NCBI GenBank assembly: GCA_051874735.1
Contig: JBJEGD010000042.1
Location: 1-64,000 of the forward strand
Origin: Candidatus Bruticola sp.
Lineage (GTDB): Bacteria; Vulcanimicrobiota; Xenobia; Xenobiales; Xenobiaceae
Length of the DNA stretch: 64,000 nt
Direction: 5' to 3'
Below the pieces are notes generated by a model that saw only the letters and a list, made by a program, of their open reading frames with translations, ran no database searches and was not told where the DNA came from. Below, one piece after another: positions 8,600 to 30,378 of this stretch. A program made the position numbers and the translations under genes. Numbering within the stretch: the first letter of the stretch is position 1; each line of letters opens with the position of its first letter.

Positions 8600-9013
8600 A
8601 TGAAGCCAGTAAAGTTAGTTGACACCAATTTGCTTGAAAGAGCGCTGGACGCCGCCTCTTTACGTCAGCAGGTCATCTCCAGTAACATAGCTAATGTCAA
8701 TACAGAGGGATACGATTCCCAGCGGGTAGTTTTCGAAAGCCATCTCAAAGAAGTCATGGCCATGGAGCAGGAAGACGAAACTGGCGAGTTAACAGCTAAC
8801 ACAGCTGTCGATCCGGAATTCCGCCTCGGTTCCAGCGGCGGCTACACCGCCGACACCTTGAAGGCCACAGTAGAATCTGTGGGAGGCCCTCTTGATATTA
8901 ACCAAGAGATGAGCAACCTTGCCAAGAACCAAATTATGTACAATGCCTTAGCCTCTAAAATTTCTGGCGTTTATGGCACTTTAAAGTATGTAATTGACAA
9001 CTCTGGTCGCTAG
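8600..9013 (+). CDS. flgB: Flagellar basal-body rod protein FlgB
   Basis: ALDAASLRQQVISSNIANVNTEGY; C-terminal DINQEMSNLAKNQIMYNAL; SD GGGAGGAG. Confidence 0.95.
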   Translation: MKPVKLVDTNLLERALDAASLRQQVISSNIANVNTEGYDSQRVVFESHLKEVMAMEQEDETGELTANTAVDPEFRLGSSGGYTADTLKATVESVGGPLDINQEMSNLAKNQIMYNALASKISGVYGTLKYVIDNSGR

Positions 9014-9049
9014 TTTGAGCCCGAAATTCAAGGTAGGAGGACATAAATA

Positions 9050-9511
9050 ATGAATTTTTTCAATACGTTTGATATAGCATCCAGCGGTATGACTGCCCAG
9101 CGCAAAATGATGGACGTAACCGCAGCCAATATTGCCAATGTCAACACCACTGAAACTGCCGACGGCACCCCCTTCCGCCGCATGGTTGCCGTAGTGACTC
9201 AAAAACAAATCGGAGATTTTGAGAACGAGTTCCAGGCTTGTTCCTTTGATGACGAAGCTCCTCAAGTAGCCCAAGGTGTAGAAGTGGCCGGCGTCCAAGC
9301 CGATAATTCCGACTTCCGCTGGGTATATGATCCGTCCAACCCCAAAGCCCAGACGAGCGGCGAGCACAAAGGATACGTAGCTATGCCTAACATTAACGTC
9401 ATTTCTGAAATGACCAACATGATGATGGCCAGCCGCGCCTTTGAAGCTAACGCTACTATTTTGGAAGCTTCCAAGTCTATGGCCAGCAAGGCCCTCGAAA
9501 TTGGCAAGTAA
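9050..9511 (+). CDS. flgC: Flagellar basal-body rod protein FlgC
   Basis: IASSGMTAQRKMMDVTAANIANVNTT; YDPSNPKA; GYVAMPNINVISEMTNMMMASRAFEAN. Confidence 0.97.
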   Translation: MNFFNTFDIASSGMTAQRKMMDVTAANIANVNTTETADGTPFRRMVAVVTQKQIGDFENEFQACSFDDEAPQVAQGVEVAGVQADNSDFRWVYDPSNPKAQTSGEHKGYVAMPNINVISEMTNMMMASRAFEANATILEASKSMASKALEIGK

Positions 9512-9552
9512 TTTTTGGGTGTCTTTTTTCGACATTTTGAGGAGGTTATAAC

Positions 9553-9906
9553 ATGCAGTTTTCTTCTATTCAAGGAATCGGCGGTCTTACCCAGGCCCCC
9601 CAAATGAACTCCGTAAGCTCTACCAATTCTATTCAGGGCATTTCCACTAGTCTTCCTTCAGTCAGCGCTCCTTCTGAAGCTGACGCCAAGTCCTTCTCCA
9701 ATATGCTTGGTGACGCCCTTTCTAATGTCAATACTACCATGACTGAAGCTCAAGAGTGCACCAGCAAGTTGCTCGACGGCAGTTTAAACAATCTTCACGA
9801 AATGTCTATTGCCGGCGCCAAGTCTGAGGTAATGCTTCACCTGACTACCCAGATCGCTTCTAAACTTTGCTCCTCAGCTACCACTTTATTCCAAATGCAG
9901 TTATAA
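9553..9906 (+). CDS. fliE: Flagellar hook-basal body protein FliE
   Basis: SFSNMLGDALSNVN...NLHEMSIAGAKSEVMLHL...LFQMQL; position between flgC and fliF. Confidence 0.9.
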   Translation: MQFSSIQGIGGLTQAPQMNSVSSTNSIQGISTSLPSVSAPSEADAKSFSNMLGDALSNVNTTMTEAQECTSKLLDGSLNNLHEMSIAGAKSEVMLHLTTQIASKLCSSATTLFQMQL

Positions 9907-9937
9907 TCCAAGCATACTGTAGGGAATTATTCGGGAT

Positions 9938-9967
9938 CGGCGTTCCCTCTGTAAGGAGGAAACGCCG
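9938..9967 (+). other. GNRA-tetraloop RNA hairpin between fliE and fliF (no U-tract)
   Basis: CGGCGTT-C-CCTCT GTAA GGAGG-A-AACGCCG. Confidence 0.5.
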
Positions 9968-10038
9968 TTGTGGCTTATAAATGAAGTCACCAAGGGGATA
10001 CCGAATTTTTATCCCCACTGTAGGAAGGAGAAACAACT

Positions 10039-11745
10039 ATGGCCACCGGTATCCAGACGGGCATGCGGACAGGTAGTGGTCCGTTAGCTACAGGAAGAGG
10101 TCCCCTGGGCAAACCGCCGGGTGGAGCCAACAACGGTAGTCCTTTGGGCAAGCTCGGCGCAATGTGGACGGGCATGAACCCGAAGGTGAGGATTGCGATC
10201 GTATGCGTTGTAGTTCTAATGGTAGTAGGAATGGTCGGGCTGAACGTTTACAGTTCTGCCAATCAACCAGTTGAACTTTACGCAACTAAACTCAGTGAAG
10301 ACGACGTAAAAGACGTCTCCATGAAACTGCAAGAGTGGAACATTCCCCACCAGGTAGCTCAAACTAACGATAACCTCTTGGTCTCACCTAAAGATAAAGT
10401 TAGGGCTCAGGCTCAATTGGCTTCCCACGGCCTTCCCCGTCACGCAGTAATGACAGCCGCCACGAAGCCTGATTCAAGCGGCATTAACACCATGTCCGAA
10501 AAAGAAAAGGACGACATTCGCAAACAAGTTCTCGAAGGAGAGCTTACCGAATCTATGCGGCAGATGGACGGAGTTGCCGACGCTTATGTAAAGCTCGGTC
10601 TTCCTGAGCGCACTTTGTTCGATAACGGACAAGAAGGCGCCAAGGCTGCAGTTATGCTTAAGCTTAAACCAGGAGCTCAGCTTAGCCGCGATCAAATCAC
10701 CGGTATCGTAAACTTAGTGGCCTATTCTGTGCCAGATTTAAAAGCAGAAAATGTAAAAATTGTTGACACAAACGGCCGCGACCTCACTGCAAACCTTCCT
10801 ATTAACGGAAATAATTTTGGAATGGCCCCCAGCAGTCAGCTCGAGTATAAGCTGGCTTTGGAGAAGCACCTTAAAGACAAGGTTGAGCAGCAGTTGGCTA
10901 CCGTTCTCGGAGCTCAAAAGTTTGCTGCTCAGGTAACAGCTGAAGTCGATTTCTCTCAGAACGAAGTTCAGCGTGAAGTTGTCGGCGGTCCCGATGACAG
11001 CGGCAAGGTGAAAGTCGGCGGTCAAAAGCGTGTAGAGCAATATAATAAAGACGGCAACAGTTCCTCGTCTAGCAATGATGACGACGGTGCTGTGCAGATG
11101 GACACAAGCAGTACTGAGAAGAAAAAAGGCACGTACGTAAAGACTGAAGAGTCTGAAAAGTATGAAGTTAACAAGACTATATCTAAAAACGTCGATACTT
11201 CTCCTCGTATTCAGCGCTTAACTGTATCCGTTGCTGTGGATAACTTGAAACCGGATCAGGAAGCAGCTATTGCTGGTTTAGTGAAAGATGCCATTGGTAT
11301 CAATGAAAGCCGCGGTGATTCTGTTACTGTAAAGAGCGTTCCTTTTGCTACGGCTACTCTTGACGGCGTTTACAGCGAAATGGCCGCAGGAATGGCCTCT
11401 GGCAACACCCCAGTAGCTCCTCCCAGCAGTGGTATCAGCACTTCTACTTTGGCAGCTATCGCCTTCATACCAGCAGTTCTGCTTATGGCTTTAGTAGCCG
11501 TCTACGTTTCTCGACAGCGTCAAGTTAAAGCTAGTCAGTCACAACTTATACTGGGTGCTTCCACTGGTAGCGCTAGCTCTGATATAGCCGATCTGCTCAA
11601 CGAGAAATCGGGCAAATCGAAAGCTATGGGTGAAACTAGAGTCAACTCTTCTGACCAGTTAGAACGTCTTGCCAAAGAGCGTCCCAATAAGTTGGCTGAA
11701 ATGATCAAAAATACTTGGCTCAGCGATCAGCAGCAGCAAAGATAG
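10039..11745 (+). CDS. fliF: Flagellar MS-ring protein FliF
   Basis: TM1, LEGELTESMRQMDGVADAYVKLGLPERTLF, AAVMLKL, IVNLVAYSVPDLKAENVKIVD, AQVTAEVDFSQ, IQRLTVSVAVD, TM2, C-terminal LAEMIKNTWL. Confidence 0.96.
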   Translation: MATGIQTGMRTGSGPLATGRGPLGKPPGGANNGSPLGKLGAMWTGMNPKVRIAIVCVVVLMVVGMVGLNVYSSANQPVELYATKLSEDDVKDVSMKLQEWNIPHQVAQTNDNLLVSPKDKVRAQAQLASHGLPRHAVMTAATKPDSSGINTMSEKEKDDIRKQVLEGELTESMRQMDGVADAYVKLGLPERTLFDNGQEGAKAAVMLKLKPGAQLSRDQITGIVNLVAYSVPDLKAENVKIVDTNGRDLTANLPINGNNFGMAPSSQLEYKLALEKHLKDKVEQQLATVLGAQKFAAQVTAEVDFSQNEVQREVVGGPDDSGKVKVGGQKRVEQYNKDGNSSSSSNDDDGAVQMDTSSTEKKKGTYVKTEESEKYEVNKTISKNVDTSPRIQRLTVSVAVDNLKPDQEAAIAGLVKDAIGINESRGDSVTVKSVPFATATLDGVYSEMAAGMASGNTPVAPPSSGISTSTLAAIAFIPAVLLMALVAVYVSRQRQVKASQSQLILGASTGSASSDIADLLNEKSGKSKAMGETRVNSSDQLERLAKERPNKLAEMIKNTWLSDQQQQR

Positions 11746-11784
11746 CCAAAATAGTAGGGCACCCCAAGGTGCAAAGTGTAAGGG

Positions 11785-11823
11785 TGCGCCTCGGGGCTTA
11801 GCTAAGCCCCGGGGCGCATTTTT
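11785..11823 (+). terminator. Intrinsic terminator between fliF and fliG
   Basis: TGCGCCTCGGGGCTT-AGCT-AAGCCCCGGGGCGCA followed by TTTTT. Confidence 0.75.
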
Positions 11824-11978
11824 CTATTCCTGTTCATTTTCTAACAGCATATAAACTGCTTAATTCAGTGCTTAGCAAGATATAAGCGCTAGTAGTCGAA
11901 CAACGCCCCCGTATTTTTTCTGTTGCACAGCTGCAGCAGACGAATTATTTTACGATTTATGCTGAGGAGGTGCGGTTA

Positions 11979-12974
11979 ATGTCTGTAAACTTACCCCCTA
12001 AACAAAAGACAGCAATACTATTGATGTCTCTTCCGCCTGAGGCTTCAGCGGAAATTTTTAAAGAGCTTGGTCCTGAAGAAGTTCAAGCTATTACAACTGA
12101 AATTTCTAAGTTGCCTCAAATTTCACCCGAAACACGAGCTCAGGTTATCCAAGAGTTCTTAAATCAGGATGGCGGCGATGCTCCTCGTCCTTTTGCCGGT
12201 TTAGGACAGCTAGGTCATCCTATGGGTGGTCCAGGTAGTTTAGGAGGCCCTCCTCCGATGAGCAGCTTTACACAAACAGCTGCGATGTCCACTTCTTCAA
12301 GCAATAGGCCTCTCGATTTTTTACGACGTGTAGATCCTCGCCAGCTTCTTCAGCTCATACGCAAAGAGCATCCTCAAACCATTGCAGTTATACTTTCTTA
12401 TCTGCAGCCTAGCCAAGCCTCAGCCGTTCTAAGCGACTTGCAACTTCCCACCCAAACAGAAGTAGCCAAACGTTTGGCAGAGCTTCATCCTGTAAATGCC
12501 GAAATCCTTACAGAATTAGAAAAAGTACTTGAATCACGTCTACACCAGGCTTTAGAAGAGGGGTCTTACTCTAATACAGACGGCAAGGAAGCTTTACTGG
12601 AGATACTTAGTCAAGCAGATCGAGGTACTGAAGAAAGAGTTCTCAGCGGCTTAGCCACTAGAAGTCCCCAACTAGTTACCAACTTAAAAACGAAGTTATG
12701 CGACTTCGAAGATCTAAACAATGTTGACGACCCTTCACTTGAACAGGTATTGCGCCTGACCGACTTCCGCGATCTCGTTTTAGCCCTAAAAGGTGCCGAT
12801 GAGAATTTATCTAAGAGAGTATATCGCTTCTTATCTCCTGATGTAGCCCAAGCTTTAAGAGATGACATCGCAAGCCTAGTTCAAGTTTCCTGGGATGAAA
12901 TAAAGCAAGCTCAACAACGCATCCGCAATATTTTGCGCGGATTGGTGACTTTAGGAAAGATTAAATTCAGATAA
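11979..12974 (+). CDS. fliG: Flagellar C-ring protein FliG (torque residues degenerate)
   Basis: QKTAILLMSL, EHPQTIAVILSYL, FEDL, LVLALKGA. ATG at 11979 follows SD GAGGAGGT; the track's GTG start lies inside that SD. Confidence 0.95.
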   Translation: MSVNLPPKQKTAILLMSLPPEASAEIFKELGPEEVQAITTEISKLPQISPETRAQVIQEFLNQDGGDAPRPFAGLGQLGHPMGGPGSLGGPPPMSSFTQTAAMSTSSSNRPLDFLRRVDPRQLLQLIRKEHPQTIAVILSYLQPSQASAVLSDLQLPTQTEVAKRLAELHPVNAEILTELEKVLESRLHQALEEGSYSNTDGKEALLEILSQADRGTEERVLSGLATRSPQLVTNLKTKLCDFEDLNNVDDPSLEQVLRLTDFRDLVLALKGADENLSKRVYRFLSPDVAQALRDDIASLVQVSWDEIKQAQQRIRNILRGLVTLGKIKFR

Positions 12975-12998
12975 ATATCTAAATTCTAAGCAAAGTAG

Positions 12999-14093
12999 GT
13001 GAGCACACTGGCTCTTTTTAAGGGAAATAATAACGGTCTGTCAGGTTCTGACAGTTCACCCAAACGTTCCGCTCTGTTGAAACAACGCCCTGCGGCCTTT
13101 CCCTCAGGCGCCCCCGGCGACGAACTTAGCGATTTCGTGCCTACAAATTTGGGGGCAACTAAAGTGTCTTCAGATGGAGGGCGCATATTCAGAGGGCGCA
13201 GCGCTGTTCCTGAAGCCCCACCTAAGACCAGCGGGGACGGTGTTTTTCGTCCTCAGACCGGACGTCCTCCAGCAGCTTCAACTTTAGGCAAAGTTTTCGG
13301 TAGCAGAAGAACGGAGAACTCCGATTACAAACTACCTCCCATCTCTTCTCAATCGGTAAGTGTGCCTACGGGCGATCCGCCGCCTCCAGGTGCCCCCCAG
13401 CCCCCTCCTCCGCCGCCGGTGGATAAAGAGATCATTGCTAAAGCTGAAGCTCAAGCCAGAGAGATGATTGCTCAGGCTCAAAACCAAATTCAGCAAATGA
13501 TCAACCAAGCTAACGAGCAAATCCAGCAGTTCAATGAACAGGCAGCAGCTGACGCGGAGCATGCCAGACAGGCGGCTTTTCAACAAGGTACTGCCCAAGG
13601 CATTGAAGAGGGCAGGCGCATGGCTCACCGCGAGTACGTCGATCTTATGCTTATGGCCCGCGATATTTACGTTCAGGCTATAAAAGAGCGACGCAAGCTT
13701 ATTGAAGACACTGAACCTGCTTTAGCTAAGTTATCCATCAGTATCGCTGAAAAGATCATAGGTTTAGAGGTCAGCACTAATAACGACGTCATTATGGGCG
13801 TTGTTAAAGAAGCTCTGGGCGATATGAAAGATCGCGAAGAAGTTAGAATCCGTGTCAATCCCGACGACTATCACATAGTGAACAACGATCGTTCGTCGCT
13901 CATGCGCATGGTCGAAGGATTAAAAGATTTTGATCTGGCCATCGATTCGAAAGTTACCCGTGGTGGCTGCGTTATCGAAACAAACTTAGGCAACATAGAT
14001 GCTCGTTTAGAAACACAGCTTGGTGCCATTACAACGGCTTTTGACAGAAGCGGCAAAGGAGAGGACATAGACGATGGCGCAAATGCCAGCTAA
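12999..14093 (+). CDS. fliH: Export ATPase regulator FliH with long Pro-rich N-terminal extension
   Basis: AxxxGxxxGxxxG (AFQQGTAQGIEEG), IAEKIIG, VRIRVNPDD, GGCVIETNLGNIDARLETQL. Confidence 0.93.
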   Translation: MSTLALFKGNNNGLSGSDSSPKRSALLKQRPAAFPSGAPGDELSDFVPTNLGATKVSSDGGRIFRGRSAVPEAPPKTSGDGVFRPQTGRPPAASTLGKVFGSRRTENSDYKLPPISSQSVSVPTGDPPPPGAPQPPPPPPVDKEIIAKAEAQAREMIAQAQNQIQQMINQANEQIQQFNEQAAADAEHARQAAFQQGTAQGIEEGRRMAHREYVDLMLMARDIYVQAIKERRKLIEDTEPALAKLSISIAEKIIGLEVSTNNDVIMGVVKEALGDMKDREEVRIRVNPDDYHIVNNDRSSLMRMVEGLKDFDLAIDSKVTRGGCVIETNLGNIDARLETQLGAITTAFDRSGKGEDIDDGANAS

Positions 14094-15657
14094 AACAGCT
14101 TCCAGAGCAACGGCAGCTCGTCCGGCTTCAGTTCCTAAAACGAACTTCACTGCTCCGCGCCAAGGAGACGGGAAAATAGCATCGGCTCCGATGGCTCCTA
14201 CAACTCCGACACCTCCGCCCTCCCCTACGCCAGCTCCACCGCCTCCCTCTCCCACTGTTCCTCAGCCGACAGATAATGACGATTTATCAGCCAAAGAACA
14301 GGCTCTAGCTCAGCCTCTTCCCCCTGCAGATCCTCTGCCCAAAATTACTTTTCCGGCTTACTACTTATCGCTGAGCCGCTGCCAGCCAATCCGTATGCAC
14401 GGAAGAGTTAGCCAAGTTATAGGCTTAACGATCGAATCGGAAGGGCCAGCCGTTAAGATGGGCGAGCTTTGCTACATTTATGAACGAGAGGGCTCCAAAC
14501 CTATTCGCTCTGAAGTCGTGGGCTTCAAAGGCAGCAAAGTTATGCTCATGCCCTTGGGTGAATTGGGTGGCATAAGTCCCGGATGTGAAGTCCGTGCTAC
14601 TGGCAAGCCTCTGTCTGTAAAAGTTGGTCCGAAACTTTTAGGGCGTGTCCTTGATGGTCTAGGTAATCCCATCGATGGTCTGGGACCGTTAGAATACGAA
14701 ACCGAATATTCAATTTACAACGAACCGCCTAACCCTATTACACGTCCGCGTATTAAAAGGGCTTTGCCGATGGGGGTTCGCGTACTCGATTCAACGTTAA
14801 CTTTGGGCGCTGGACAGCGTGTCGGTATCTTTGCCGGTTCCGGTGTAGGTAAATCAACAACTCTCTCTATGATTGCCAGAAATACGGCTGCTCAAGTAAA
14901 TGTTTTAGCTCTAATCGGAGAACGCGGGCGTGAGCTGCGCGACTTTATTGAGCGCGACTTAGGTCCTGAAGGCATGAAACGTTCCGTAGTAGTGGTAGCT
15001 ACTTCTGACCAACCAGCTTTGGTACGTCTTAAAGGAGCTTACACAGGCACAGCTTTAGCAGAGTACTTCCGCGATCAAGGCAATGACGTCATGCTCATGA
15101 TGGACTCTGTAACACGTTTTGCTATGGCTCAACGTGAGGTAGGTTTGGCCGTAGGCGAACCGCCGGCAACAAAAGGATACACGCCTTCCTGCTTTGCCTT
15201 GCTTCCTAAACTTATGGAACGTGCCGGTACCTCTCCTAAAGGTTCAATCACAGGCATATATACCGTACTGGTAGAAGGTGACGACATGAACGAGCCTATA
15301 GCTGACACCGTGCGAGGTATTCTCGACGGTCACATAGTGCTCAACCGTAAAATCGCCCACAAGAACCGTTACCCTGCCGTCGATGTCTTGCAGTCAGTAT
15401 CCCGTCTGTTTACAGAAATTAATCCCAAAGATATTCAAAAAGCAGCCGGCGTACTAAGAAATGTTCTAGCCGTTTACCAAGAGAACGAAGACCTGATCAA
15501 TATTGGCGCTTATCAAAAAGGTTCAAACCCCAAAGTCGACTTCGCTATAGACAAAATCGATGAAGTTCAAAAATTCCTTTCTCAAGGAATTTACGAACCG
15601 GCCCCCTTCGAAGAAACGCGCCGCCGTTTATTAGAAATGTTTGGAGAGCAGAAGTAA
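14074..15657 (+). CDS. fliI: Type III export ATPase FliI with Pro-rich N-terminal extension
   Basis: Walker A GIFAGSGVGKST, ALIGERGRE, MMDSVTRFAMAQRE, GEPPATKGY, ILDGHIVL, YPAVDVLQSVSR. Confidence 0.98.
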   Translation: MAQMPAKTASRATAARPASVPKTNFTAPRQGDGKIASAPMAPTTPTPPPSPTPAPPPPSPTVPQPTDNDDLSAKEQALAQPLPPADPLPKITFPAYYLSLSRCQPIRMHGRVSQVIGLTIESEGPAVKMGELCYIYEREGSKPIRSEVVGFKGSKVMLMPLGELGGISPGCEVRATGKPLSVKVGPKLLGRVLDGLGNPIDGLGPLEYETEYSIYNEPPNPITRPRIKRALPMGVRVLDSTLTLGAGQRVGIFAGSGVGKSTTLSMIARNTAAQVNVLALIGERGRELRDFIERDLGPEGMKRSVVVVATSDQPALVRLKGAYTGTALAEYFRDQGNDVMLMMDSVTRFAMAQREVGLAVGEPPATKGYTPSCFALLPKLMERAGTSPKGSITGIYTVLVEGDDMNEPIADTVRGILDGHIVLNRKIAHKNRYPAVDVLQSVSRLFTEINPKDIQKAAGVLRNVLAVYQENEDLINIGAYQKGSNPKVDFAIDKIDEVQKFLSQGIYEPAPFEETRRRLLEMFGEQK

Positions 15658-15660
15658 ATT

Positions 15661-16122
15661 ATGGGGCAGAAACGTTTCCGCTATCGTTTACAGCAAATTC
15701 TTGAATTAAAAATTCAAGCTGAAGAAGATGAAAAAGAAAAGCTGGCAAAACTTATTCAACAGCAGGAGAATGAGCGTCAAATTAAAGCTCAGCTCGAAAA
15801 AAAGCTCGTATCCATCAGAGAAGAGTTAAAAGTCAGACAAGCTAATGGCACCCTTGATATCAATCAGCTTAGGTTTTTTCCTCAGCATATTGAGTTCGTT
15901 AAAGGGCAAATTGTAAACCAAGAGCTCAGGCTTAAAGAGCTGACTATTCGTATCGCCCAACAGCGCGATAATCTTATGAAAGCAGCTCAAGAGAGACAGA
16001 GTTACGAAAAAAACAAAGAAAAAAGTCAGGAAAAATGGATGGCCGAAATTGAGCAAGAGGAGAACAAAATGCTAGACGAACTGGCGACTCTCAAATACGC
16101 CCGCGATCCATCCTCTATTTAA
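15661..16122 (+). CDS. fliJ: Export stalk protein FliJ
   Basis: KRFRYRLQQILELK...EEDEK; coiled coil; C-terminal EQEENKMLDELA; follows fliI. Confidence 0.92.
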   Translation: MGQKRFRYRLQQILELKIQAEEDEKEKLAKLIQQQENERQIKAQLEKKLVSIREELKVRQANGTLDINQLRFFPQHIEFVKGQIVNQELRLKELTIRIAQQRDNLMKAAQERQSYEKNKEKSQEKWMAEIEQEENKMLDELATLKYARDPSSI

Positions 16123-16293
16123 CATTATAACTTTTTACATCCGCAAAATATGCGGCCATGTATCTCTGGGAAAACAGCTAAACTTCTACTATAATAAAGA
16201 AAAAGAAGCTTGGCTCCCTGCTGAATATTCTCTGTCTTAACAGAGGCTATGTATAAGCAGCAAGCATAGCAGCGACAAAAGGAGGCTAATGAA

Positions 16294-16917: not shown

Positions 16918-16970
16918 CCGTCCTTTCCAAGTCTGCCACCTTTTCCAAATAGAAAAAGTAAGGAGCCGTT

Positions 16971-17921: not shown

Positions 17922-18095
17922 AGTTGGTTTCTAACCTGTTTGGGGCTTTATTGTTTACATTTTAGCAATAAACTGTTTAAGGCCCGACAATAAGCCATTG
18001 ATATTCTTACAGTGAGATGGAGAGGGCTTTTTCTCAGCAGGTCAAAACTTATGAGTGAAAGTGCCCAATGGGTTTAAGGAGGCAAAAAGTAGATC

Positions 18096-18914: not shown

Positions 18915-18948
18915 TTTTTCGTAATTTCCCATAAATACTTTATTTAAT

Positions 18949-18999
18949 AACACGACAAGGATCTATCTTACTATAGATAGTTTCTTGTCGTGTTTTTTT
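18949..18999 (+). terminator. Intrinsic terminator after the flgE-like gene
   Basis: AACACGACAAG...CTATCT/AGATAG...CTTGTCGTGTT followed by a T-run. Confidence 0.75.
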
Positions 19000-20498: not shown

Positions 20499-20541
20499 TC
20501 TAGGCCGTTGCGGCAAACTTAAATATATTGGAGGCAAACTA

Positions 20542-21926: not shown

Positions 21927-22032
21927 AAAAGTACCGTTTTTTGTTGTTACTGTTATCCATGTTCGAATGAAAGCGGCCCGTTCTAGTAGAATTATCTAAC
22001 TAAATTATCTTGAGTATAAAGCGAGAGATAGC

Positions 22033-22833: not shown

Positions 22834-22882
22834 CCTAGACAATAAGTTATAGTGTAGTAATAAAAGGATTATAGGAGGAAAG

Positions 22883-23179
22883 ATGTTCGTACTGGGGGCA
22901 GAAGTTTTCGACGACGGCTTCGTGCTAGCTCTCTGCACAAAGGCTCTTTATCTGGTGCTGGTTCTCTCAGCCCCAATGCTAATGTCCGCCCTGTCTGTAG
23001 GTCTTATGGTCAGTATCGTCCAGGCGACCACTCAGGTTCAGGAGCAGACGCTCTCGTTTGTACCCAAAATTATAGCTACTTTTATGGCTATAGTTTTGTG
23101 CGGAAACTGGATGTTCAATATGCTTTCCAGTTTTACTATATCCACTTTTGCCGATATCGCCCGCTTGGGGCCCAAATAA
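22883..23179 (+). CDS. fliQ: Export gate protein FliQ
   Basis: VGLMVSIVQATTQVQEQTLSFVPKI. Confidence 0.97.
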   Translation: MFVLGAEVFDDGFVLALCTKALYLVLVLSAPMLMSALSVGLMVSIVQATTQVQEQTLSFVPKIIATFMAIVLCGNWMFNMLSSFTISTFADIARLGPK

Positions 23180-23185
23180 AGTAGC

Positions 23186-23971
23186 ATGACTGGAATGATG
23201 AGCGATCCGGCCCTGCAGCTGCTGGGTGTAGGAATGCTTGCCTTCGTAAGAATGGCTCTTATATTTGTGCAGGCGCCGATTTTTGGAAGTAACCACATTC
23301 CCAATACCGTACTGGTGGGGACTGCGGCAGCTTTCACGATGGTGTTGTATCCTACTCTGCCCGTTCCTAACGATATGCCTACCGATCTGTTCCCTTTTTT
23401 GGGAGCTTTGCTCACTCAAGCATGCGTCGGGTTAGTAATAGGTTTCGTCTCGTTTATCGTCATCGCTGCAGCTCAGTTCGGCGGTGAAATGCTCGATATT
23501 CAAATGGGCCTATCTTCGGCAGCTTCCTTCGATCCTGCCAGCCATGGTGCTATCAACCTGCTGCGCAAAGTGCTATTTTACACATCTATGAATCTATACT
23601 TGGTTCTTGGTGGTCACCATCAACTTTTGGCCGCCGTCTACAAGAGCTATCAAGTAGTACCTCTGACCTATTTTCATATGTCAGAAAATTTAGCTATGAC
23701 TCTTCTGCGTATGAGCAGCGATCTTCTAGTTATAGGTACGCAGATTGCTGCGCCAGCCTTAGCAGCTTTATTCATAGCCCAGTGCGCTTTGGGTTTATTG
23801 GCCCGCGTGGCTCCTCAAATGAACATTTTCATGTTGAGTTTCCCACTCAACATTGCTATCGGATTGGTACTCCTGCGCCTCTCTTATCCTCTGGTAATGA
23901 GAGTGCTGGGCAATCAATTTGAAATAAACCTCGATATTTTGCTACAATGTATAGGAATGATGAAGCCATAA
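23186..23971 (+). CDS. fliR: Export gate protein FliR
   Basis: APIFG, AAQFGGEMLDIQMGLSSAASFDP, GGHH, IAAP, LLARVAPQMNIFMLSFPLNI. Confidence 0.97.
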   Translation: MTGMMSDPALQLLGVGMLAFVRMALIFVQAPIFGSNHIPNTVLVGTAAAFTMVLYPTLPVPNDMPTDLFPFLGALLTQACVGLVIGFVSFIVIAAAQFGGEMLDIQMGLSSAASFDPASHGAINLLRKVLFYTSMNLYLVLGGHHQLLAAVYKSYQVVPLTYFHMSENLAMTLLRMSSDLLVIGTQIAAPALAALFIAQCALGLLARVAPQMNIFMLSFPLNIAIGLVLLRLSYPLVMRVLGNQFEINLDILLQCIGMMKP

Positions 23972-23985
23972 GGAGGTGAAATTAG

Positions 23986-25188
23986 ATGGGTGGTCAGGAT
24001 AGCGACAAAACTGAAGAACCAACTGAACATAAGTTACAAGAAGCCCGCAAAAAAGGCCAGGTAATGAAAAGTCAGGAGGTGATATCCACCTGCCTGCTTT
24101 TGGCTACGGCCGGTGCCATGTACGGAGCCGGCGGCGGTATGTTGTCGAGAATACGTGAACTAACCATCTATGTATGGAGCTTAATACCGACCTATAATAT
24201 GAATGCTCGCAGTCTTAACGGGGATATTTTCCACGTTATGATTACCATTTTGTTAGTGTTGGCGCCGCTTTTAGCGGCAGGCTTCATGATGGCCATTGTG
24301 GCCAATATAGCTCAAGTACAGTTCATATTCTCAACTGAAACTCTTAAACCAAGTCTAAACAAGATAAATCCTTTAGAAGGCTTTAAAAAGATATTCAGTG
24401 TCAAATCAGCAGTTGAGCTACTTAAGCAGCTTGCTAAATTAGGTGTTATAGGTTACATATGCTATAAGGTTGTAGGGGAAGTTCTGCCCCAGCTGCAGAC
24501 AGCTCCAGCTATTCCTCTTATGGCTACTTTGGAACTCGTTGGTCTAACTGTTAAGAGCCTCGTTATGAAGGTTTTAGTTGGCATGGTGGTGATTGCCGGC
24601 CTCGACTACATCTTCCAGAAGAAGCAGTTTATGAAACAGATGCGCATGAGCATGCAAGACCTGAAAGACGAATACAAAGAGACTGAAGGAAACCCACAAG
24701 TAAAGGGTAAGCTCCGTCAGCTTATGCGCCAAAGCTCTCAAGGCGGTGGAGGCGGAGGTAACATGATGGCTGAAGTTCCTGATGCTTCGGCTGTAGTTAC
24801 TAACCCGACCCATTTGGCAGTAGCTCTCCGCTATAAACAAGGTGAAGATCCTGTGCCTATTGTTGTAGCTAAAGGCGAAAACATGACGGCCGTCCAGATA
24901 AAAATTATGGCTGAAGATCACGATGTGCCTATTGTCGAAAACGTCGAACTAGCTAGAGCCTTGTTTAAGACCTGTGAACTTTCCGGTCCGGTACCTACCG
25001 AAATGTACAAAGCTGTCGCTGAAGTGCTGGCTTATGTTATTAAACTTAAAAGAAAGCGCGAATTGCTGCGCAGGCGCCGTTTGGCCCGTAATGGCCCTCC
25101 ACGTCGGACAGCTCGTGCCGCTGTAGCCTCACCTTCTATGCCGAAAACTCAATTTACGGCTAGGAGCATGGCTTCAGGAAGACGTTAA
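23986..25188 (+). CDS. flhB: Export switch protein FlhB
   Basis: KTEEPTEHKLQEARKKGQV, KINPLEG, KDEYKETEGNP, intact NPTH autocleavage site, PIVVAKG; Arg-rich C-terminal tail. Confidence 0.97.
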   Translation: MGGQDSDKTEEPTEHKLQEARKKGQVMKSQEVISTCLLLATAGAMYGAGGGMLSRIRELTIYVWSLIPTYNMNARSLNGDIFHVMITILLVLAPLLAAGFMMAIVANIAQVQFIFSTETLKPSLNKINPLEGFKKIFSVKSAVELLKQLAKLGVIGYICYKVVGEVLPQLQTAPAIPLMATLELVGLTVKSLVMKVLVGMVVIAGLDYIFQKKQFMKQMRMSMQDLKDEYKETEGNPQVKGKLRQLMRQSSQGGGGGGNMMAEVPDASAVVTNPTHLAVALRYKQGEDPVPIVVAKGENMTAVQIKIMAEDHDVPIVENVELARALFKTCELSGPVPTEMYKAVAEVLAYVIKLKRKRELLRRRRLARNGPPRRTARAAVASPSMPKTQFTARSMASGRR

Positions 25189-25194
25189 TCAACA

Positions 25195-25220
25195 TTGACT
25201 GCTTTTCAGTCAGCTTTTTT
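25195..25220 (+). terminator. Weak intrinsic terminator candidate between flhB and flhA
   Basis: TGACTG-CTTTT-CAGTCA then GCTTTTTT. Confidence 0.4.
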
Positions 25221-25335
25221 CCAAGACTCGCACTTTTACCAAACGCGCAGTTCTTCCAGCAGCGCCAGGTTAATGTGTGAGTCTGTTGGTATTTAAATTA
25301 TATTTAATTTTAATATACTGGAGAAGTCGAATAAT

Positions 25336-27471
25336 ATGGGTGCCCAGCCCGGTGCAGAAGTATTAGACAAACTTATGAAATGCTCCGATATCGGCAGTGC
25401 TGTTGCTATTGTCGGTATTGTAGGCATGTTGATTGTTCCTCTCCCGCCAGACATGCTCGATGTGCTTCTGGCCTTCAATTTGGCCTGCGCCATCATTACA
25501 GTACTCATTTCAATTTACATTGAAGAGCCTCTGCAATTTGCTGTATTCCCTACAGTCTTGCTAGTAGCAACTTTGTTCCGTCTGGCTCTGGACGTCTCAG
25601 CTACGCGTATGATTCTGCTCCACGGCAATGAAATTGACGTAGTAACCAAGATGCCCACCGGTGCCGGCCACCTAATTCCTACATTCGGAAAGGTGGCTGT
25701 AGGAGGCAACTTAATCGTAGGCTTCATTATGTTTATCATTCTGATTATCATTCAGATTATGGTAATCACCAATGGTGCCGAACGTATAGCTCAGGTAGCG
25801 GCCCGTTTTAACTTAGACGCTATGCCTGGTAAGCAAATGGCTATCGACGCCGACCTCCATGCCGGCAATATCGATGCCGAAACAGCTAGAAAAAAACGCA
25901 AAGACATTGAGCGCGAATCTGACTTCTATGGTTCTATGGACGGTGCCGGCAAATTCGTAAAAGGTGACGCTATGGCTTCTATCGTCATTATGTTGGTCAA
26001 CGTCATCGGCGGTATCGGCATAGGCGTACTATACCACGGTATGGACATCGCTCACGCTCTTAACACCTACGCCATTTTATCTATAGGCAACGGACTTATG
26101 ACAACTTTGCCGGCCTTCTTAATGTCCACAGCTATGGGCTTGGTAGTTTCTCGTGCAGCCTCCGAATCTAACCTCGGACGCGACGTTGTCGAGCAGGTTT
26201 CCGGTCAGCCTGGCGCTTTAAAAATGGCTGGCGCCTTCATGCTCACCTTGGCCCTACTCTCCCTTTTAGCTGGTCTTCCTAAATTTATGGCCTTTACTTT
26301 GGCCTGCATCGGCGGCGCTCTCTTCTTCATGGGACATCAATTGGAAAAGAAAAACCAAGAAGTGGCTGCTGCAGTTACCGGAGGCACCACTACGGCCCAG
26401 GAGCAAAAGAAAAAGACGGAACAGAAAAAACCGGAGAGTGTCGTCCAGCTCATGCAGGTCGATCCCATCTCTTTGGAAGTTGGCCGCGGCTTGCTCTCTT
26501 TAGTAGACCCCAATCAAGGGGCCAAACTGCTCGATCGTGTAACCTCAATTCGCCGTCACATTGCTTTAGAGCTGGGTATTGTAGTACCAGGCGTGCGCTT
26601 CCGTGACAATTTGCAACTTAAGCCGAACGCTTATGTTATCAAGATAAAAGAAATAGAAGTCGCTCAGGGTGAAGTTCAAGTTAACCAATTCTTAGCGATA
26701 GGCCCTGAAGAGAAGCTTAAAAACTTACGCGGTACCAAAACTGTTGACCCGACTTACGGTATGCCAGGCGTATGGATTTCCCCAGAACAACGCGGCGATG
26801 CCGAACGTTTAGGATGCATGATCTTTGACCCTGTAAGCGTTATTGCAACTCAGCTGACCGAGGTTGTCAGAACTCATGCTTCTGAAATGCTGGGACGCCA
26901 GGAAGTTCAGGCTCTCATCGACACGGTCAAAAAGACCCATCCAGCAGTTGTCAAAGAAATCTTCCCCGACGCCTTGGGATTGGGCGAAATTCAGAAAGTG
27001 CTGCAGAATTTGGTCAAAGAGCGCGTGTCTGTGCGCGACTTAGTTTCTATTTTAGAAACTATGGGCGACAACGTACATATTACCAAAGATCCTGAAATGC
27101 TTACAGAATTCTGCCGTGTCAGCCTTTCTCGGGTCATTTGCAAGGACTACTGCAACAATGATGGTACGATCAACGTGATTACGCTCGATCCTAAAATTGA
27201 GCAAATGATTCAAGGCGCCATCCAGCGCAGTGAACTGGGCTCTTTCTTAACTCTCGATCCGAACTTAGGCCAGGAGATTTTGCAGGCTATATCTCAGCAA
27301 GCCAATGCTTTGCAAGAGCGAGGTCTTCAACCGATACTTTTGGTAGCTCCGCAGATTCGCCCAGCTGTACGTAAATTGACAGAGCGATCTTTCCCGAACT
27401 TGGTAGTTCTCTCTTGGAATGAGATAGCTCCTAAAATTAACGTAAACTCCGTGGGTATGGTCTCCTTCTAA
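25336..27471 (+). CDS. flhA: Export apparatus protein FlhA
   Basis: FPTVLLVATLFRLALDVSATRMIL, AQVAARFNLDAMPGKQMAIDADL, FYGSMDGAGKFVKGDA, KVLQNLVKERVSVRDL, VLSWNEI. Confidence 0.98.
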   Translation: MGAQPGAEVLDKLMKCSDIGSAVAIVGIVGMLIVPLPPDMLDVLLAFNLACAIITVLISIYIEEPLQFAVFPTVLLVATLFRLALDVSATRMILLHGNEIDVVTKMPTGAGHLIPTFGKVAVGGNLIVGFIMFIILIIIQIMVITNGAERIAQVAARFNLDAMPGKQMAIDADLHAGNIDAETARKKRKDIERESDFYGSMDGAGKFVKGDAMASIVIMLVNVIGGIGIGVLYHGMDIAHALNTYAILSIGNGLMTTLPAFLMSTAMGLVVSRAASESNLGRDVVEQVSGQPGALKMAGAFMLTLALLSLLAGLPKFMAFTLACIGGALFFMGHQLEKKNQEVAAAVTGGTTTAQEQKKKTEQKKPESVVQLMQVDPISLEVGRGLLSLVDPNQGAKLLDRVTSIRRHIALELGIVVPGVRFRDNLQLKPNAYVIKIKEIEVAQGEVQVNQFLAIGPEEKLKNLRGTKTVDPTYGMPGVWISPEQRGDAERLGCMIFDPVSVIATQLTEVVRTHASEMLGRQEVQALIDTVKKTHPAVVKEIFPDALGLGEIQKVLQNLVKERVSVRDLVSILETMGDNVHITKDPEMLTEFCRVSLSRVICKDYCNNDGTINVITLDPKIEQMIQGAIQRSELGSFLTLDPNLGQEILQAISQQANALQERGLQPILLVAPQIRPAVRKLTERSFPNLVVLSWNEIAPKINVNSVGMVSF

Positions 27472-27547
27472 ATTACAACATTTCTCAAGCAGTAAACGTT
27501 TAGCAATTTTGCCGCTCCAAAAGCGAGAACGGATGGTATAAAAGGCT

Positions 27548-27865
27548 ATGGAAATGGAACCTAGAGTAGGTTTAACTCCTGAAGAAATGATTACTAATTT
27601 TAACCGTATGTATCAAGATTCTTGGGAGCGCAGCCGCGAACAGATAGACTGGCAAGCCATTAAGAGACCTAACGCAGATCTCTCAAAATGGGTTCTGGAA
27701 GTATTAGAAATAGTGATGGCTGCTTCCAGAGATGCCATGACTTTTACCATAATGGAAAATAATAAGCGTATTGCTGAACAGATGGTGGAACAAGGGCTGC
27801 CAGTTCACATGGAAGAGGTACAAGATGACGGCTCTTCGGAATTAGATTTCGATCGCATGGCTTAA
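27548..27865 (+). CDS. Small acidic helical hypothetical protein (in the flhF position); candidate chaperone
   Basis: 105-aa ORF directly after flhA and before a strong terminator; no GTPase motifs, no TM. Confidence 0.75.
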   Translation: MEMEPRVGLTPEEMITNFNRMYQDSWERSREQIDWQAIKRPNADLSKWVLEVLEIVMAASRDAMTFTIMENNKRIAEQMVEQGLPVHMEEVQDDGSSELDFDRMA

Positions 27866-27871
27866 TTCTTG

Positions 27872-27926
27872 TACAAAAAAAATACGCCTTACCGAATGTT
27901 ATTCGGTAAGGCGTATTTTTTTTGTA
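27872..27926. terminator. Perfect inverted-repeat intrinsic terminator (works in either direction)
   Basis: TACAAAAAAAATACGCCTTACCGAAT-GTT-ATTCGGTAAGGCGTATTTTTTTTGTA (26-bp arms). Confidence 0.9.
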
Positions 27927-28062
27927 ATAAAGCGATAAATAAACAGCAAAGCTTTAGATTACAAGTTGTCAATACTCTTTTTTTACACTGCAGTCATAAA
28001 CAGGCGGAATCAGTTCTCTTGCAGAGCAAGCCCCTGAAATGCTAACAAGCGAGGTAAAAAAT

Positions 28063-28341
28063 ATGAGTATACTTTCTAATGTATTCAGCAGTTTAGGCAA
28101 CGCTTTTTTTCAAAATAGCCAGCAGGCCCATATGCTGCAAATGTACACTAACGATATACAAAATGCCCAAACTATTTATGCCTCTATTGAAGCTCAAGCT
28201 CAAAAGAGCCAAATGGAACGCTGGAAGATAGCCAACGATACCCAAACTAAAATATTTGAAATTCAGCAAGACGTCACAGTCAATCGTGCTAAAACACAAG
28301 ACAAAATGTTTAATAAATGGAGCGATTACATTCGCTCTTAA
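28063..28341 (+). CDS. 92-aa helical protein, shared-C-terminal-domain family member 1 (needle/filament subunit candidate)
   Basis: ATG at 28063 follows SD GAGGT; last 55 aa align without gaps to the C-termini of the next two ORFs. Confidence 0.85.
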   Translation: MSILSNVFSSLGNAFFQNSQQAHMLQMYTNDIQNAQTIYASIEAQAQKSQMERWKIANDTQTKIFEIQQDVTVNRAKTQDKMFNKWSDYIRS

Positions 28342-28405
28342 TTAAGCGGCTTTCTTAAATTAATTTCCTTCCAGACTTATCCTTAAAGAAAGAGGTACAT
28401 TAAGT

Positions 28406-29215
28406 ATGGTGATTTCCGAAAGCCGCCTGTCTAATCCAACAGCTACGGCTACAATACATCCTCTCAATTCCTCCCCTATCTCAGACAGTCAAAATCCGTC
28501 AAGCTCATCCCAACCCACCGATACTTTTATAACTCAACAGCCAAGCACATATATCCCTACTATAAACAGATTTCCTTCAACAAGCTCACCATCAGATTCT
28601 TTAAGTACTTCAGAAGACAGTGAACTAACGGATACAAATACAACTATAAGTTCAAACGATTCTGATCCAGAAGCCATCTCATCAGACTCAAACTCTAATA
28701 CCTGCACTTCAGAAACTGAAAGGAATTGCTGCCATGAAGAGATCCCCCCCCCAGCCGCCCCCACCTTCATTTTTCAAGAAAATTTTTTCCAGCCTCTATC
28801 GTCAGCTACTCCAGCTGAAGCCAATAGCTCTCAACAAGAAGTTTCATCAATACCTGAAACTGTACAAGCTGCATCTGAAGATACTCAAAACTCTCAAGAC
28901 CAGACAAACGCCACTTTGCCAGCAGCCTATTACCCAGAAGCCAAAAAAGCGGATCCAACTCCAGAGCCCCCTCTGAGCCAAGCGGAAGAAAGAGCTCTAG
29001 CTGAAGAAAAAGAGCAGCAAGAGAAACTTCGCGTCCAGGCTATCTACGATCGTATGGAAGCCGAAAAAATCATTGCTGAAAATAAACGCCAGGCGATATG
29101 GGCCGATTTGCAAACTGAACTACAGCGCATCTGGAGAGAAGTCATGATTCGGCGCAAAAAATCAGAAGACGATTATATGAAAAACTGGCAAAAAGTATTC
29201 CTTAATGTAGGTTAA
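28406..29215 (+). CDS. 269-aa protein, Ser/Thr-rich disordered N-terminus plus shared C-terminal domain (family member 2)
   Basis: SD GAGGT; C-terminus IYDRMEAEKIIAENKRQAIWADLQTELQRIWREVMIRRKKSEDDYMKNWQKVF. Confidence 0.85.
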   Translation: MVISESRLSNPTATATIHPLNSSPISDSQNPSSSSQPTDTFITQQPSTYIPTINRFPSTSSPSDSLSTSEDSELTDTNTTISSNDSDPEAISSDSNSNTCTSETERNCCHEEIPPPAAPTFIFQENFFQPLSSATPAEANSSQQEVSSIPETVQAASEDTQNSQDQTNATLPAAYYPEAKKADPTPEPPLSQAEERALAEEKEQQEKLRVQAIYDRMEAEKIIAENKRQAIWADLQTELQRIWREVMIRRKKSEDDYMKNWQKVFLNVG

Positions 29216-29634
29216 TGTCTTATATTTTGCGTCCTATAAGCCGGCTGTATATCAATTGTAAATTTATAAAAAAGCCGAACTACAGCCGGCCTAAAAAGTT
29301 GACATAAAAATATTTAATCGACGAACATTTAATACGATCTAGCTAATTTCCTATTGAGACAGCAATAGAAATTTATCAATATCTATACAGCGATATAAAA
29401 AAGACTCGCACTATATGTATAAAGTTAAGCATACAATAGACGAACAAACATGATTTTTTTCGACAAAATCATGATCGCCAACAGCTATAAAATTCCAACA
29501 ATGGGGCTAAATTTCACAAATAAGCAACAAGACAACCTTTTTTTTAACAGGCTTAACAATTATAATGGTAGGGAAAATAAATGCATTATAGCCAGAGAGT
29601 TCTGGCCTTTAGCCTTGCAAGGAGGCCTGTATAA

Positions 29635-30378
29635 ATGGTTGCCCCTATCGGAATCAATACTAATGCCTATTCGCAGACCAATGCTGTCCGCAATATGCAG
29701 CAAGTTGGCGGTCAGAGCCAAGTAACCCGCCAATCCGACGTAGCTCCATCTCAGAGCGAAAATCAGCATACTGCTGCAGCTGACAATGTTCAGCTTTCCG
29801 AAGGTGTTTCGTTTGCTCAAGATGCCCAGGAAAATGCCACTCATATAGGTGCTGCTCAGAACCAATTTGAAAGTGAAATCGGTGACGCTTTTGAAAGTGC
29901 CGCAGAATCTGAAGTTGGTGCCTCTCAAGCTGGTGCGGCCGGTACTTCCGAAGAAGCAGCCGCTCCCCGTGAGCCTCAAACTGATGAGTATGGTTTCATT
30001 TTGATGGATGAACAGGGCAATCCTATTGGCGGAAGCGTTCCTCCAGAGGATGGCGGCTCCGGTGCTCCTCCTATTGACGGTGGTGGCAATGCTGGTCAAG
30101 CTGGTGAAGTACCCCCTGAGGATGGTGGTGCTGGGGAAACTCAAGAAAGCGAAGCTTCCAGAGCTTCTCGTCTTCAGTCGATGGAGCAAGATCGTGAAGA
30201 GGCCATGAAGATCTACACTCAAATGATGGCAGATCGTCAAAAGTGGTTTGCTGAACTGATGAAGATCCTTGCCGATACTCAGGCGTCAATTTTCGACATT
30301 ATCCAACAGACCATGACCAACCGTGCTATGGCTTTCGATAGAGCTATGGCTGGATGGTCCAGAGCCTTCAACGGATAA
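29635..30378 (+). CDS. 247-aa protein, acidic Gly/Pro-rich N-terminus plus shared C-terminal domain (family member 3)
   Basis: SD AAGGAGG; AADNVQLSE; three PP(E/I)DGG repeats; C-terminus IYTQMMADRQKWFAELMKILADTQASIFDIIQQTMTNRAMAFDRAMAGWSRAF. Confidence 0.88.
   Translation: MVAPIGINTNAYSQTNAVRNMQQVGGQSQVTRQSDVAPSQSENQHTAAADNVQLSEGVSFAQDAQENATHIGAAQNQFESEIGDAFESAAESEVGASQAGAAGTSEEAAAPREPQTDEYGFILMDEQGNPIGGSVPPEDGGSGAPPIDGGGNAGQAGEVPPEDGGAGETQESEASRASRLQSMEQDREEAMKIYTQMMADRQKWFAELMKILADTQASIFDIIQQTMTNRAMAFDRAMAGWSRAFNG

Follow-up and report, generated by a model that had tools for sequence, protein, structure and literature searches.

A conserved paralogue of the flagellar export apparatus, linked to a new family of small helical proteins, in Candidatus Bruticola and its relatives

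To our knowledge, the type III (T3) protein export core has only two well-established uses, the flagellum and the injectisome, and its evolution is known from these end states only. A flagellin-less and stator-less basal body has been kept by the aphid symbiont Buchnera and is proposed to serve as a protein exporter; it is the remnant of the only flagellum of that cell, retained in a shrinking genome. The locus described here lies in a 64,000-nucleotide stretch of DNA from the gut bacterium Candidatus Bruticola sp. (GenBank assembly GCA_051874735.1, contig JBJEGD010000042.1, positions 1 to 64,000), which is called the window in the following. At positions 8600-30378, the window carries genes of a flagellum-type T3 export apparatus, which we regard, with a probability of roughly 60%, as the main operon of a complete non-rotating machine, paralogous to the flagellum used for swimming, which probably exports a family of small helical proteins encoded next to flhA.

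The system shares with the flagellum the T3 secretion core, the MS ring, the C ring, a complete rod, a sigma factor of the FliA/WhiG type, and the order of the core genes from flgB to flhA. It differs from it in that flagellin, FlgK/FlgL, FliD, FliS, FlgD, MotAB, and the P ring were not found in searches of the Bruticola genome, in having no gene at the fliL position and no cheY or flhF/flhG at their usual places, and in a FliM without the customary N-terminal motif. Judged by the parts that make up a flagellum, the export core, the rings, and the rod are there, while a hook with its FlgD cap, the filament set, the stator, and FlgI were not recovered. As in Buchnera, a basal body is kept without flagellin and stators, although it is known here from its genes; unlike the symbiont's remnant, it represents a separate FlhA clade coexisting with a canonical one and is accompanied by a novel protein family of its own. 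The likeness to the injectisome (non-flagellar T3 secretion system; see Abby and Rocha 2012, PMC3459982) consists in a flagellum-derived export apparatus that apparently has no motility function. In addition, genes for small helical proteins adjoin the core genes in both, and both have a ruler of the FliK/SctP type, which gives a weak HpaP/YscP-type match here. However, the window system keeps FliG, FliE, FlgB, FlgC, FlgF, FlgG, FliM, and FliO, none of which is known from injectisomes. Its loci contain no secretin, its core proteins score lower on Sct than on flagellar models, and its small proteins have no detectable relation to needle proteins, apart from a weak likeness to HrpA/HrpE in a language-model search.

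The window belongs to contig C42 of a 2.47-Mb assembly with 42 contigs and a completeness of 92.4% (labeled G000 below), and its genes were compared with a sample of 41 related genomes, ranging from the same genus to the same class. An FlhA of the type encoded in the window (70-100% identity) is present in all 41 genomes, represented by contig-end pieces only in five fragmented assemblies, and the whole cluster was recovered by tblastn in the same order in six of the seven relatives inspected, the seventh locus being cut by a contig end. The genomes bearing the system range in size from 1.9 to 9.5 Mb. Flagellin is encoded in eight of the 41, which are exactly the eight with an extra full-length FlhA of 42-46% identity; FlgI occurs in seven of these, and strong matches to MotB_plug are found in the same eight, with two weak ones elsewhere. 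The flagellin region of one of them, G028, carries its own FliM, FlhA, FlhB, FliR, FliQ, FliF, and FliG together with FliD, and a further locus of that genome encodes FliI, FlgD, a long FlgE, and FliP. The FlgG of the window system (67-100% identity) was found in 38 of the 41 genomes, with FlgF adjoining wherever this match is listed, and the three genomes without it are assemblies of 64-75% completeness; a second FlgG (48-52%) is present in seven flagellate genomes. Between G000 and its congener G005, synonymous divergence (dS) is saturated and non-synonymous divergence (dN) amounts to 0.04-0.3 for the core genes, and all 24 genes listed below are open and conserved. Because of its presence in all 41 genomes, its synteny, its coexistence with a second FlhA and flagellin in eight of them, and the low dN values, the cluster is, as judged from these comparisons, a paralogue of the canonical flagellum kept up by selection and neither a decayed relic nor an assembly gap. 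The original prediction, made from the letters of the window, had proposed an independent repurposing of the flagellum; that the system is separate and conserved is borne out by its occurrence in every genome of the sample, by the eight genomes in which a second FlhA is encoded along with flagellin and stators, and by the separate flagellar set of G028.

Genes were assigned from a listing of open reading frames (ORFs) and from Pfam scans of the window ORFs up to position 32593. Positions 8600-27471 form one co-directional cluster on the plus strand, which is given here together with the four genes that follow it (E, expectation value; aa, amino acids).

8600-9013, plus strand: flgB, proximal rod (Pfam Flg_bb_rod, E 4.4e-09; 48-80% identity in six relatives)
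9050-9511, plus strand: flgC, proximal rod (Pfam Flg_bbr_C and Flg_bb_rod; dN 0.038 and saturated dS versus G005)
9553-9906, plus strand: fliE (Pfam FliE, E 5.3e-13)
10039-11745, plus strand: fliF, MS ring (Pfam YscJ_FliF and YscJ_FliF_C; NCBIfam fliF 211.7 bits, cut-off 129.75; SctJ model 55 bits)
11970-12974, plus strand: fliG with a divergent torque helix (Pfam FliG_N, FliG_M, and FliG_C; NCBIfam fliG 219.9 bits, below the cut-off of 226.7)
12999-14093, plus strand: fliH (Pfam FliH, E 7.9e-22)
14074-15657, plus strand: fliI, export ATPase with a proline-rich N-terminal extension of about 90 residues (Pfam ATP-synt_ab and T3SS_ATPase_C; NCBIfam FliI_clade2 657.7 bits, cut-off 629.8)
15661-16122, plus strand: fliJ (Pfam FliJ, E 8.3e-13)
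16294-16917, plus strand: SLT lytic transglycosylase (Pfam SLT, E 1.1e-33; same position in 6 of 7 relatives, counting loci that reach it)
16971-17921, plus strand: fliK, length control and substrate switch (Pfam Flg_hook, E 4.2e-14, residues 245-310)
18096-18914, plus strand: short axial protein of the FlgE/F/G type, 272 aa, at the hook-gene position (Pfam LlgE_F_G_D1 and a weak Flg_bbr_C; NCBIfam FlgEFG_subfam 144 bits)
19229-20200, plus strand: fliM without an N-terminal motif of the CheY-binding type (Pfam FliM and FliMN_C; NCBIfam fliM 177.8 bits, below the cut-off of 219.6)
20175-20498, plus strand: fliN, copy 1 (Pfam FliMN_C, E 1.4e-25)
20542-20847, plus strand: fliN, copy 2 (Pfam FliMN_C, E 7.2e-21)
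20847-21926, plus strand: FliO-like protein, 359 aa, with a long low-complexity N-terminal part (Pfam FliO, E 5.1e-11, residues 241-307)
22033-22833, plus strand: fliP (Pfam FliP, E 7.2e-78; NCBIfam fliP 264 bits, cut-off 217)
22883-23179, plus strand: fliQ (Pfam Bac_export_3)
23186-23971, plus strand: fliR (Pfam Bac_export_1; NCBIfam fliR 171.9 bits, cut-off 168.6)
23986-25188, plus strand: flhB (Pfam Bac_export_2, E 2.6e-118; NCBIfam flhB 371.6 bits, cut-off 349.25)
25336-27471, plus strand: flhA of a lineage-specific type (Pfam FHIPEP, E 9.7e-252; NCBIfam FlhA 801 bits, cut-off 772; hrcV 620 bits, under its cut-off)
27548-27865, plus strand: acidic 105-aa protein of no known family (no Pfam or PHROG match; after flhA in 5 of 7 relatives)
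28039-28341, plus strand: small single-helix protein, 100 aa, founding member of the family (phmmer and hmmsearch)
28406-29215, plus strand: Ser/Thr/Pro-rich protein, 269 aa, with the family domain at its end (family hidden Markov model (HMM), E 1.8e-22 in the third iteration; no Pfam match)
29635-30378, plus strand: 247-aa protein with a conserved N-terminus, an acidic low-complexity middle part, and the family domain at the C-terminus (family HMM, E 1.9e-27)

The gene order matches that of the fla/che operon of the Bacillota, and the ORF listing and the Pfam matches bear out the predicted content and order of the core genes. The same applies to the places where the prediction had seen only short gaps or novel genes: the flgD position measures 174 bp only, the motA/motB/fliL position 314 bp with just one 68-aa ORF (without a tblastn match in seven relatives), the cheY position 0 bp, and the position of flhF/flhG is taken by novel ORFs without a Pfam family. 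The export motifs described as intact are indeed present, namely the Walker A motif GSGVGKST of FliI and the autocleavage motif NPTH of FlhB, both read from the translations, and the Flg_hook C-domain of FliK, which is conserved in alignments, whereas the N-terminal part of FliK is variable. On the flagellar equivalog models of NCBIfam, FlhA, FliI, FliP, FlhB, FliF, and FliR score above the cut-offs and higher than on the Sct models, with hrcV, SctN, SctR, SctU, and SctJ all remaining below their own cut-offs on the core proteins of the window; FliG and FliM fall just under the equivalog cut-offs. The short FlgE-like protein shows 61-93% identity across the class, and the FliO-like protein evolves fast (dN 0.65 versus G005). 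The transglycosylase encoded within the cluster would probably open the peptidoglycan for the rod. No Pfam match was obtained for a 91-aa ORF at 29450-29725, and two very large ORFs (1245 and 1339 aa) lie just beyond the locus on the minus strand (window positions 32839-40694).

A further locus of the same system is located at 82-87 kb of contig C26 and encodes a MerR-type regulator, a second FliK-like protein, a 94-aa protein resembling the C-terminal part of FlhB, FlgF, FlgG, a rod-binding protein of the FlgJ type, a FliA/WhiG sigma factor (195.8 bits against an NCBIfam cut-off of 189.6), and a TPR protein. Both loci together provide a complete rod, a FlgJ-type rod-binding protein, and a sigma factor of their own. 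The absence of a second basal-body locus is not supported, with flgF, flgG, the N-terminal flgJ domain, and fliA of the same system encoded on C26, and the reported absence of fliA is valid for the window but not for the genome. In contrast, the prediction of an apparatus without filament, junction, cap, stators, and P ring withstood whole-genome family searches, in which the genes for these parts were not found elsewhere either. No matches were obtained in G000 for Flagellin_N, FliD_C, FliS, FlgI, or MotB_plug, and none for FlgD in G000, G005, and G013, while FlgD is present in the flagellate genomes G021 and G028. FlgI gave no match in 34 of the 41 relatives either and is present in seven flagellate ones; FlgH was not searched. 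No FlgM rose above noise in the genome. The absence of flagellin, FlgI, and MotB_plug extends to all ten genomes of the genus (88-98% complete), and among the 19 genomes of the family, including G000, flagellin and FlgI gave no match and MotB_plug two weak ones only. Proteins with a Flg_bbr_C domain number four in the genome, namely FlgC, the short FlgE-like protein, FlgF, and FlgG, and the whole-genome search yielded no additional one that could be FlgK. The sole gene of the MotA_ExbB family adjoins two ExbD genes.

Two secretins are encoded in the genome, neither of them at these loci. As judged from gene order and size, the first follows a pilin gene, an ORF of prepilin-peptidase size, and three ORFs of PilM/N/O-like size, and the second sits among genes of GspE/F size. 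The ExbB-ExbD-ExbD operon stands alone on its contig (G000:C39:17073-18697), and a search for TonB_C, restricted to PF03544, gave no match in any of the ten genus genomes. A chemosensory operon at G000:C5:16000-24000 encodes CheW, a CheR-TPR protein, another CheW, one methyl-accepting chemotaxis protein, a CheA-receiver fusion, and CheB. The combination of a CheA-receiver fusion with CheR-TPR is typical of pilus or alternative systems, and this operon may serve type IV pili, an operon running from pilin to a PilQ-like gene being present on C27.

The original prediction had further stated that the rotation and chemotaxis residues of FliG and FliM are degenerate, which is correct in part. The canonical FliM of G028 starts with a motif of the LSQ-EID type, which we take to be the docking site of phosphorylated CheY, and the FliM orthologues of the window system lack it in the alignment. 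The helix aligned in FliG presumably corresponds to the stator-facing helix of model organisms; in all seven orthologues aligned, it carries an acidic residue and a proline or serine where the canonical FliG of G028 has two arginines. On the other hand, the acidic pair of the helix is kept and the C-domain ranks with the best-conserved parts, which does not agree with a general degeneration. These features would fit a loss of coupling to MotA, short of proof.

The genes downstream of flhA were rightly recognized as a novel family of their own, as confirmed by iterated profile searches and by the search of a large sequence library. Phmmer and iterated hmmsearch identified four small and two larger members in G000, the latter being the 269-aa and 247-aa proteins of the window, and three of the small ones, of 90-95 aa, form a tandem at G000:C26:114705-116067. 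All share a C-terminal domain of about 65 residues; the small members comprise 78-100 residues, and the domain has 27 invariant columns in 32 sequences and is near-invariant across the class. AlphaFold2 predicts one long helix for the small protein encoded at 28039 (residues 4-99; predicted local distance difference test (pLDDT) score 81). Its 158 homologues include none that is named as a family, and the family is new and previously undescribed. Close homologues carry the names Candidatus Bruticola sp. (90% identity), Candidatus Xenobium, and Candidatus Eremiobacterota, which suggests by name that the organism falls into the Xenobia/UBP9 part of the Eremiobacterota. Only about a dozen residues precede the conserved domain in the shortest homologues (77-78 aa), which, as read from the alignment and not from a predictor, leaves no room for a Sec-type signal peptide. 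A member of the family is found downstream of flhA in six of the seven inspected relatives and in G069, in the case of G021 as three identical tandem copies, and the family profile matches 35 of the 41 relatives with one to nine matches each. In a library of 1.84 billion representative sequences, 423 clusters match the profile, the proteins measuring 42-1938 aa and nearly always ending in the domain. Of ten long members subjected to a Pfam scan, four had domains above the cut-off (RHS repeats with SLH, a VgrG-like spike, trypsin-TIR-TPR, and an autotransporter). This recalls BID and XVIPCD, the conserved C-terminal delivery domains on substrates of type IV secretion, in that a constant domain of about 65 residues is combined with varied N-terminal parts. 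It differs from them in the secretion system concerned and in that the domain also stands alone as a multi-copy small protein.

The acidic 105-aa protein encoded between flhA and the first small gene is predicted to form a helical hairpin (AlphaFold2 pLDDT 81), and Foldseek gave no match to this model with E <= 0.001. A terminator-like hairpin lies directly 3' of its gene. The protein is a candidate chaperone; a complex prediction of it with the small protein gave a score of 0.00, counting neither for nor against a chaperone-substrate pairing. The upstream regions of small genes were inspected by eye and without statistics for the window gene at 28039, the C26 copies at 114992, 115522, and 116067, and copies of relatives, and seven of ten showed a TTTAC-type box about 16-19 bases before a box of the GATAAT or GATAxx type, two of them sharing GGGGCAAG after the latter. 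A sigma-28-type promoter, searched by a loose regular expression, was rejected as a general feature, matching in one of 15 upstream regions. A homology of the family to flagellin was also dismissed, as hhalign against six canonical flagellins of the order gave a probability of 0.1%; a visual resemblance of the 247-aa protein to flagellin at its N-terminus is not supported by hhalign. The protein-language-model search mentioned above returned a weak likeness to HrpA/HrpE pilins only (score 0.91, low recognition). In two genomes of the related genus g8, the ORF right after flhA resembles by eye a FliQ-like small membrane protein (L145:528-845; L146, reverse strand, 457-819).

Of 151 genomes sampled from the phylum, 139 contain an FlhA match. 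Outside the class, matches of 63-75% identity extend to 23 genomes in 12 further families, while the families f15 (a large one), f20, and f21 show matches of at most 49% identity only. An unrooted FlhA tree was calculated from 107 rows with IQ-TREE (LG+G4), leaving out six near-identical copies from the genus and one duplicate, with support from the SH-like approximate likelihood ratio test (SH-aLRT) only and without an SctV outgroup. The 18 window-type FlhAs form one clade (SH-aLRT 99), whose sister group consists of three fast-evolving FlhAs from f15 (SH-aLRT 100), and the seven canonical FlhAs of the phylum form a clade elsewhere (SH-aLRT 99), surrounded by the 79 rows that other phyla contributed. 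The independent repurposing of a flagellum proposed originally is plausible, but a tree without an SctV outgroup does not give the order of events. A second FlhA of the window type, 55-63% identical and belonging to the same clade, is present in some large genomes (e.g., G030:C2:158514-160577, G033:C70:59448-61532, and G098:C595:7808-9847), which suggests a duplication of the system. A genome of f15 assembled as a single contig of 3.5 Mb (G050), in which flagellin was not found, has a fast-evolving and partly syntenic cluster at G050:C1:2772000-2811999 with fliF, fliH, fliI, SLT, a flgE-like gene, fliN, fliP, an insert of about 9 kb, fliQ, flhB, and flhA; the small-helix family is not part of it. 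In addition, G000 encodes a stand-alone cytoplasmic domain of FlhA (491 aa, G000:C22:122510-123985) without the membrane part, which matches FHIPEP positions 326-655 with E 8.7e-65 and is flanked by two ORFs without a Pfam family. Each genome of the genus contains one such paralogue, and related large genomes have up to 14 FlhA-type matches each. A co-expansion of these paralogues with the small family was considered and rejected because g8 has the most matches to the FlhA C-terminal domain (10-14) and yet no family match. The cultured member Vulcanimicrobium alpinus is reported to lack flagella and a flagellin gene (PMC9758169). We found no description of the present system in the literature searched; the results of the TXSScan survey of related genomes by Paoli et al. 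(2022; PMC9259500) may bear on its novelty.

The reading favored here assigns to the main operon the MS ring, the C ring, the export gate, the ATPase complex, the proximal rod, and an enzyme opening the peptidoglycan, together with the FliK/FlhB switch and a short hook-type protein. The locus on C26 would add the distal rod proteins FlgF and FlgG, the FlgJ-type rod-binding protein, and the FliA/WhiG sigma factor. From these parts, a non-rotating basal body would assemble through the cell wall. In flagellar export, FliK and FlhB switch the apparatus from early to late substrates, and the intact FliK together with the NPTH motif of FlhB implies that a late substrate class exists. The small helical proteins with their multiple gene copies, along with the larger family members encoded beside flhA, are the most economical candidates for it. 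After the switch, the lineage-specific single-helix proteins would be exported, alongside the larger proteins sharing the C-terminal domain of about 65 residues, and would either polymerize into a new distal structure or be released. While the gene content, the missing genes, the paralogy with canonical flagella, the conservation, and the existence of the family and its genomic linkage are shown by the sequences, we only infer that the family is exported, that the machine does not rotate, and that there is some structure or target outside the cell. The use in secretion, injection, or attachment and the role of the novel proteins as distal subunits, both proposed originally, are likewise putative.

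Several observations weigh against this reading. The family domain is also found at the end of a protein with RHS and SLH parts, of a VgrG-like spike fragment, of a trypsin-TIR-TPR protein, and of two multi-pass membrane proteins, while residues 619-675 of the autotransporter P0238 (1036 aa) place it within the passenger; such a modular spread fits a module for interactions in general or for effectors no less than a subunit dedicated to the axial structure. Five of the six bearers P0192, P0170, P0150, P0238, P0141, and P0162 have the domain at the C-terminus, combined with varying N-terminal parts. The profile matches none of the six genomes of g8, although the window-type FlhA is present there, and none of the four genomes of f15 with the fast-evolving form of the cluster. 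The novel proteins have no detectable relation to flagellin, needle proteins, or Pfam, PHROG, and PDB families; no outer-membrane route is obvious, both secretins lying in operons resembling those of pili or type II secretion systems; FliG is kept, its torque helix still has the acidic pair, and its C-domain is highly conserved in seven orthologues, which leaves room for an unrecognized stator; and the genome is a draft in 42 contigs. The modular domain and the missing profile matches in g8 and f15 would also agree with a genuine basal body that has a cargo other than the small helical family, its substrates being only rod and hook proteins and perhaps a regulator, and the whole serving as a structural or regulatory basal body of the envelope. 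The FliA/WhiG factor, kept without a recognizable FlgM, makes an export-coupled regulatory circuit conceivable and points in the same direction. We nevertheless consider this explanation rather unlikely, since a family member follows flhA in six of seven relatives and in G069, the 247-aa and 269-aa neighbors share the same domain, and the intact FliK/FlhB NPTH switch implies a late substrate class. Even the g8 genomes keep a marginal 81-aa look-alike (E 0.006 in a small search) and two larger ORFs at the same place downstream of flhA.

An apparatus that still rotates, as a very divergent flagellum with the small helical family as its filament and an unrecognized stator, e.g., ExbB-ExbD-ExbD, driving FliG, appears distinctly improbable. 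Hook cap, junction proteins, filament cap, and P ring are lacking in a bacterium that has outer-membrane systems, two arginines of the FliG helix are replaced in all seven orthologues, one of them by an acidic residue, FliM has no N-terminus for CheY docking, and in eight genomes the system is accompanied by a second FlhA together with flagellin and stator genes, G028 having a full separate set. A rotary function would explain why FliG, with its conserved C-domain and acidic pair, FliM, and two FliN copies have been kept, and the multi-copy small genes with promoter-like boxes of their own in seven of ten regions, as seen by eye, do resemble flagellin genes. The chemosensory cluster is of the kind known from pili or alternative systems, although its presence as such would suit a motile cell, and the link to the ExbB-ExbD-ExbD operon, an orphan on C39 in a genus without TonB_C matches in ten genomes, is pure conjecture. 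That the window contains an ordinary flagellar operon whose missing genes escaped assembly, or a decaying relic, is scarcely credible, in spite of the draft state of the 42-contig assembly with its completeness of 92.4% and of the close agreement with the Bacillota operon: flagellin, FlgI, and MotB_plug are missing from ten of ten genus genomes, all 24 genes are open and conserved at saturated dS and low dN, and every one of the eight flagellate relatives has a second FlhA, G028 even a separate gene set. A non-rotating export machine with the small helical family as its probable cargo, therefore, remains our preferred interpretation. A more far-reaching and rather doubtful version of it would see here a third, ancient T3 lineage in the Eremiobacterota, in which a non-rotating basal body builds a fibre from single-helix subunits, each about 80 residues long, and uses the shared C-terminal domain to export or co-assemble modular proteins whose heads resemble adhesins, enzymes, or toxins.

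The system appears to have dropped the filament, the stators, and the coupling to chemotaxis, yet it has kept the C ring, the full rod, and the substrate switch, and may thus be regarded as a natural intermediate or a parallel experiment in the repurposing of flagella. It can be put to the test within this phylum, of which at least one member is now in culture. It also carries a warning for surveys of this phylum and of gut or rumen metagenomes, in which the presence of flagellar assembly genes should not be equated with motility.

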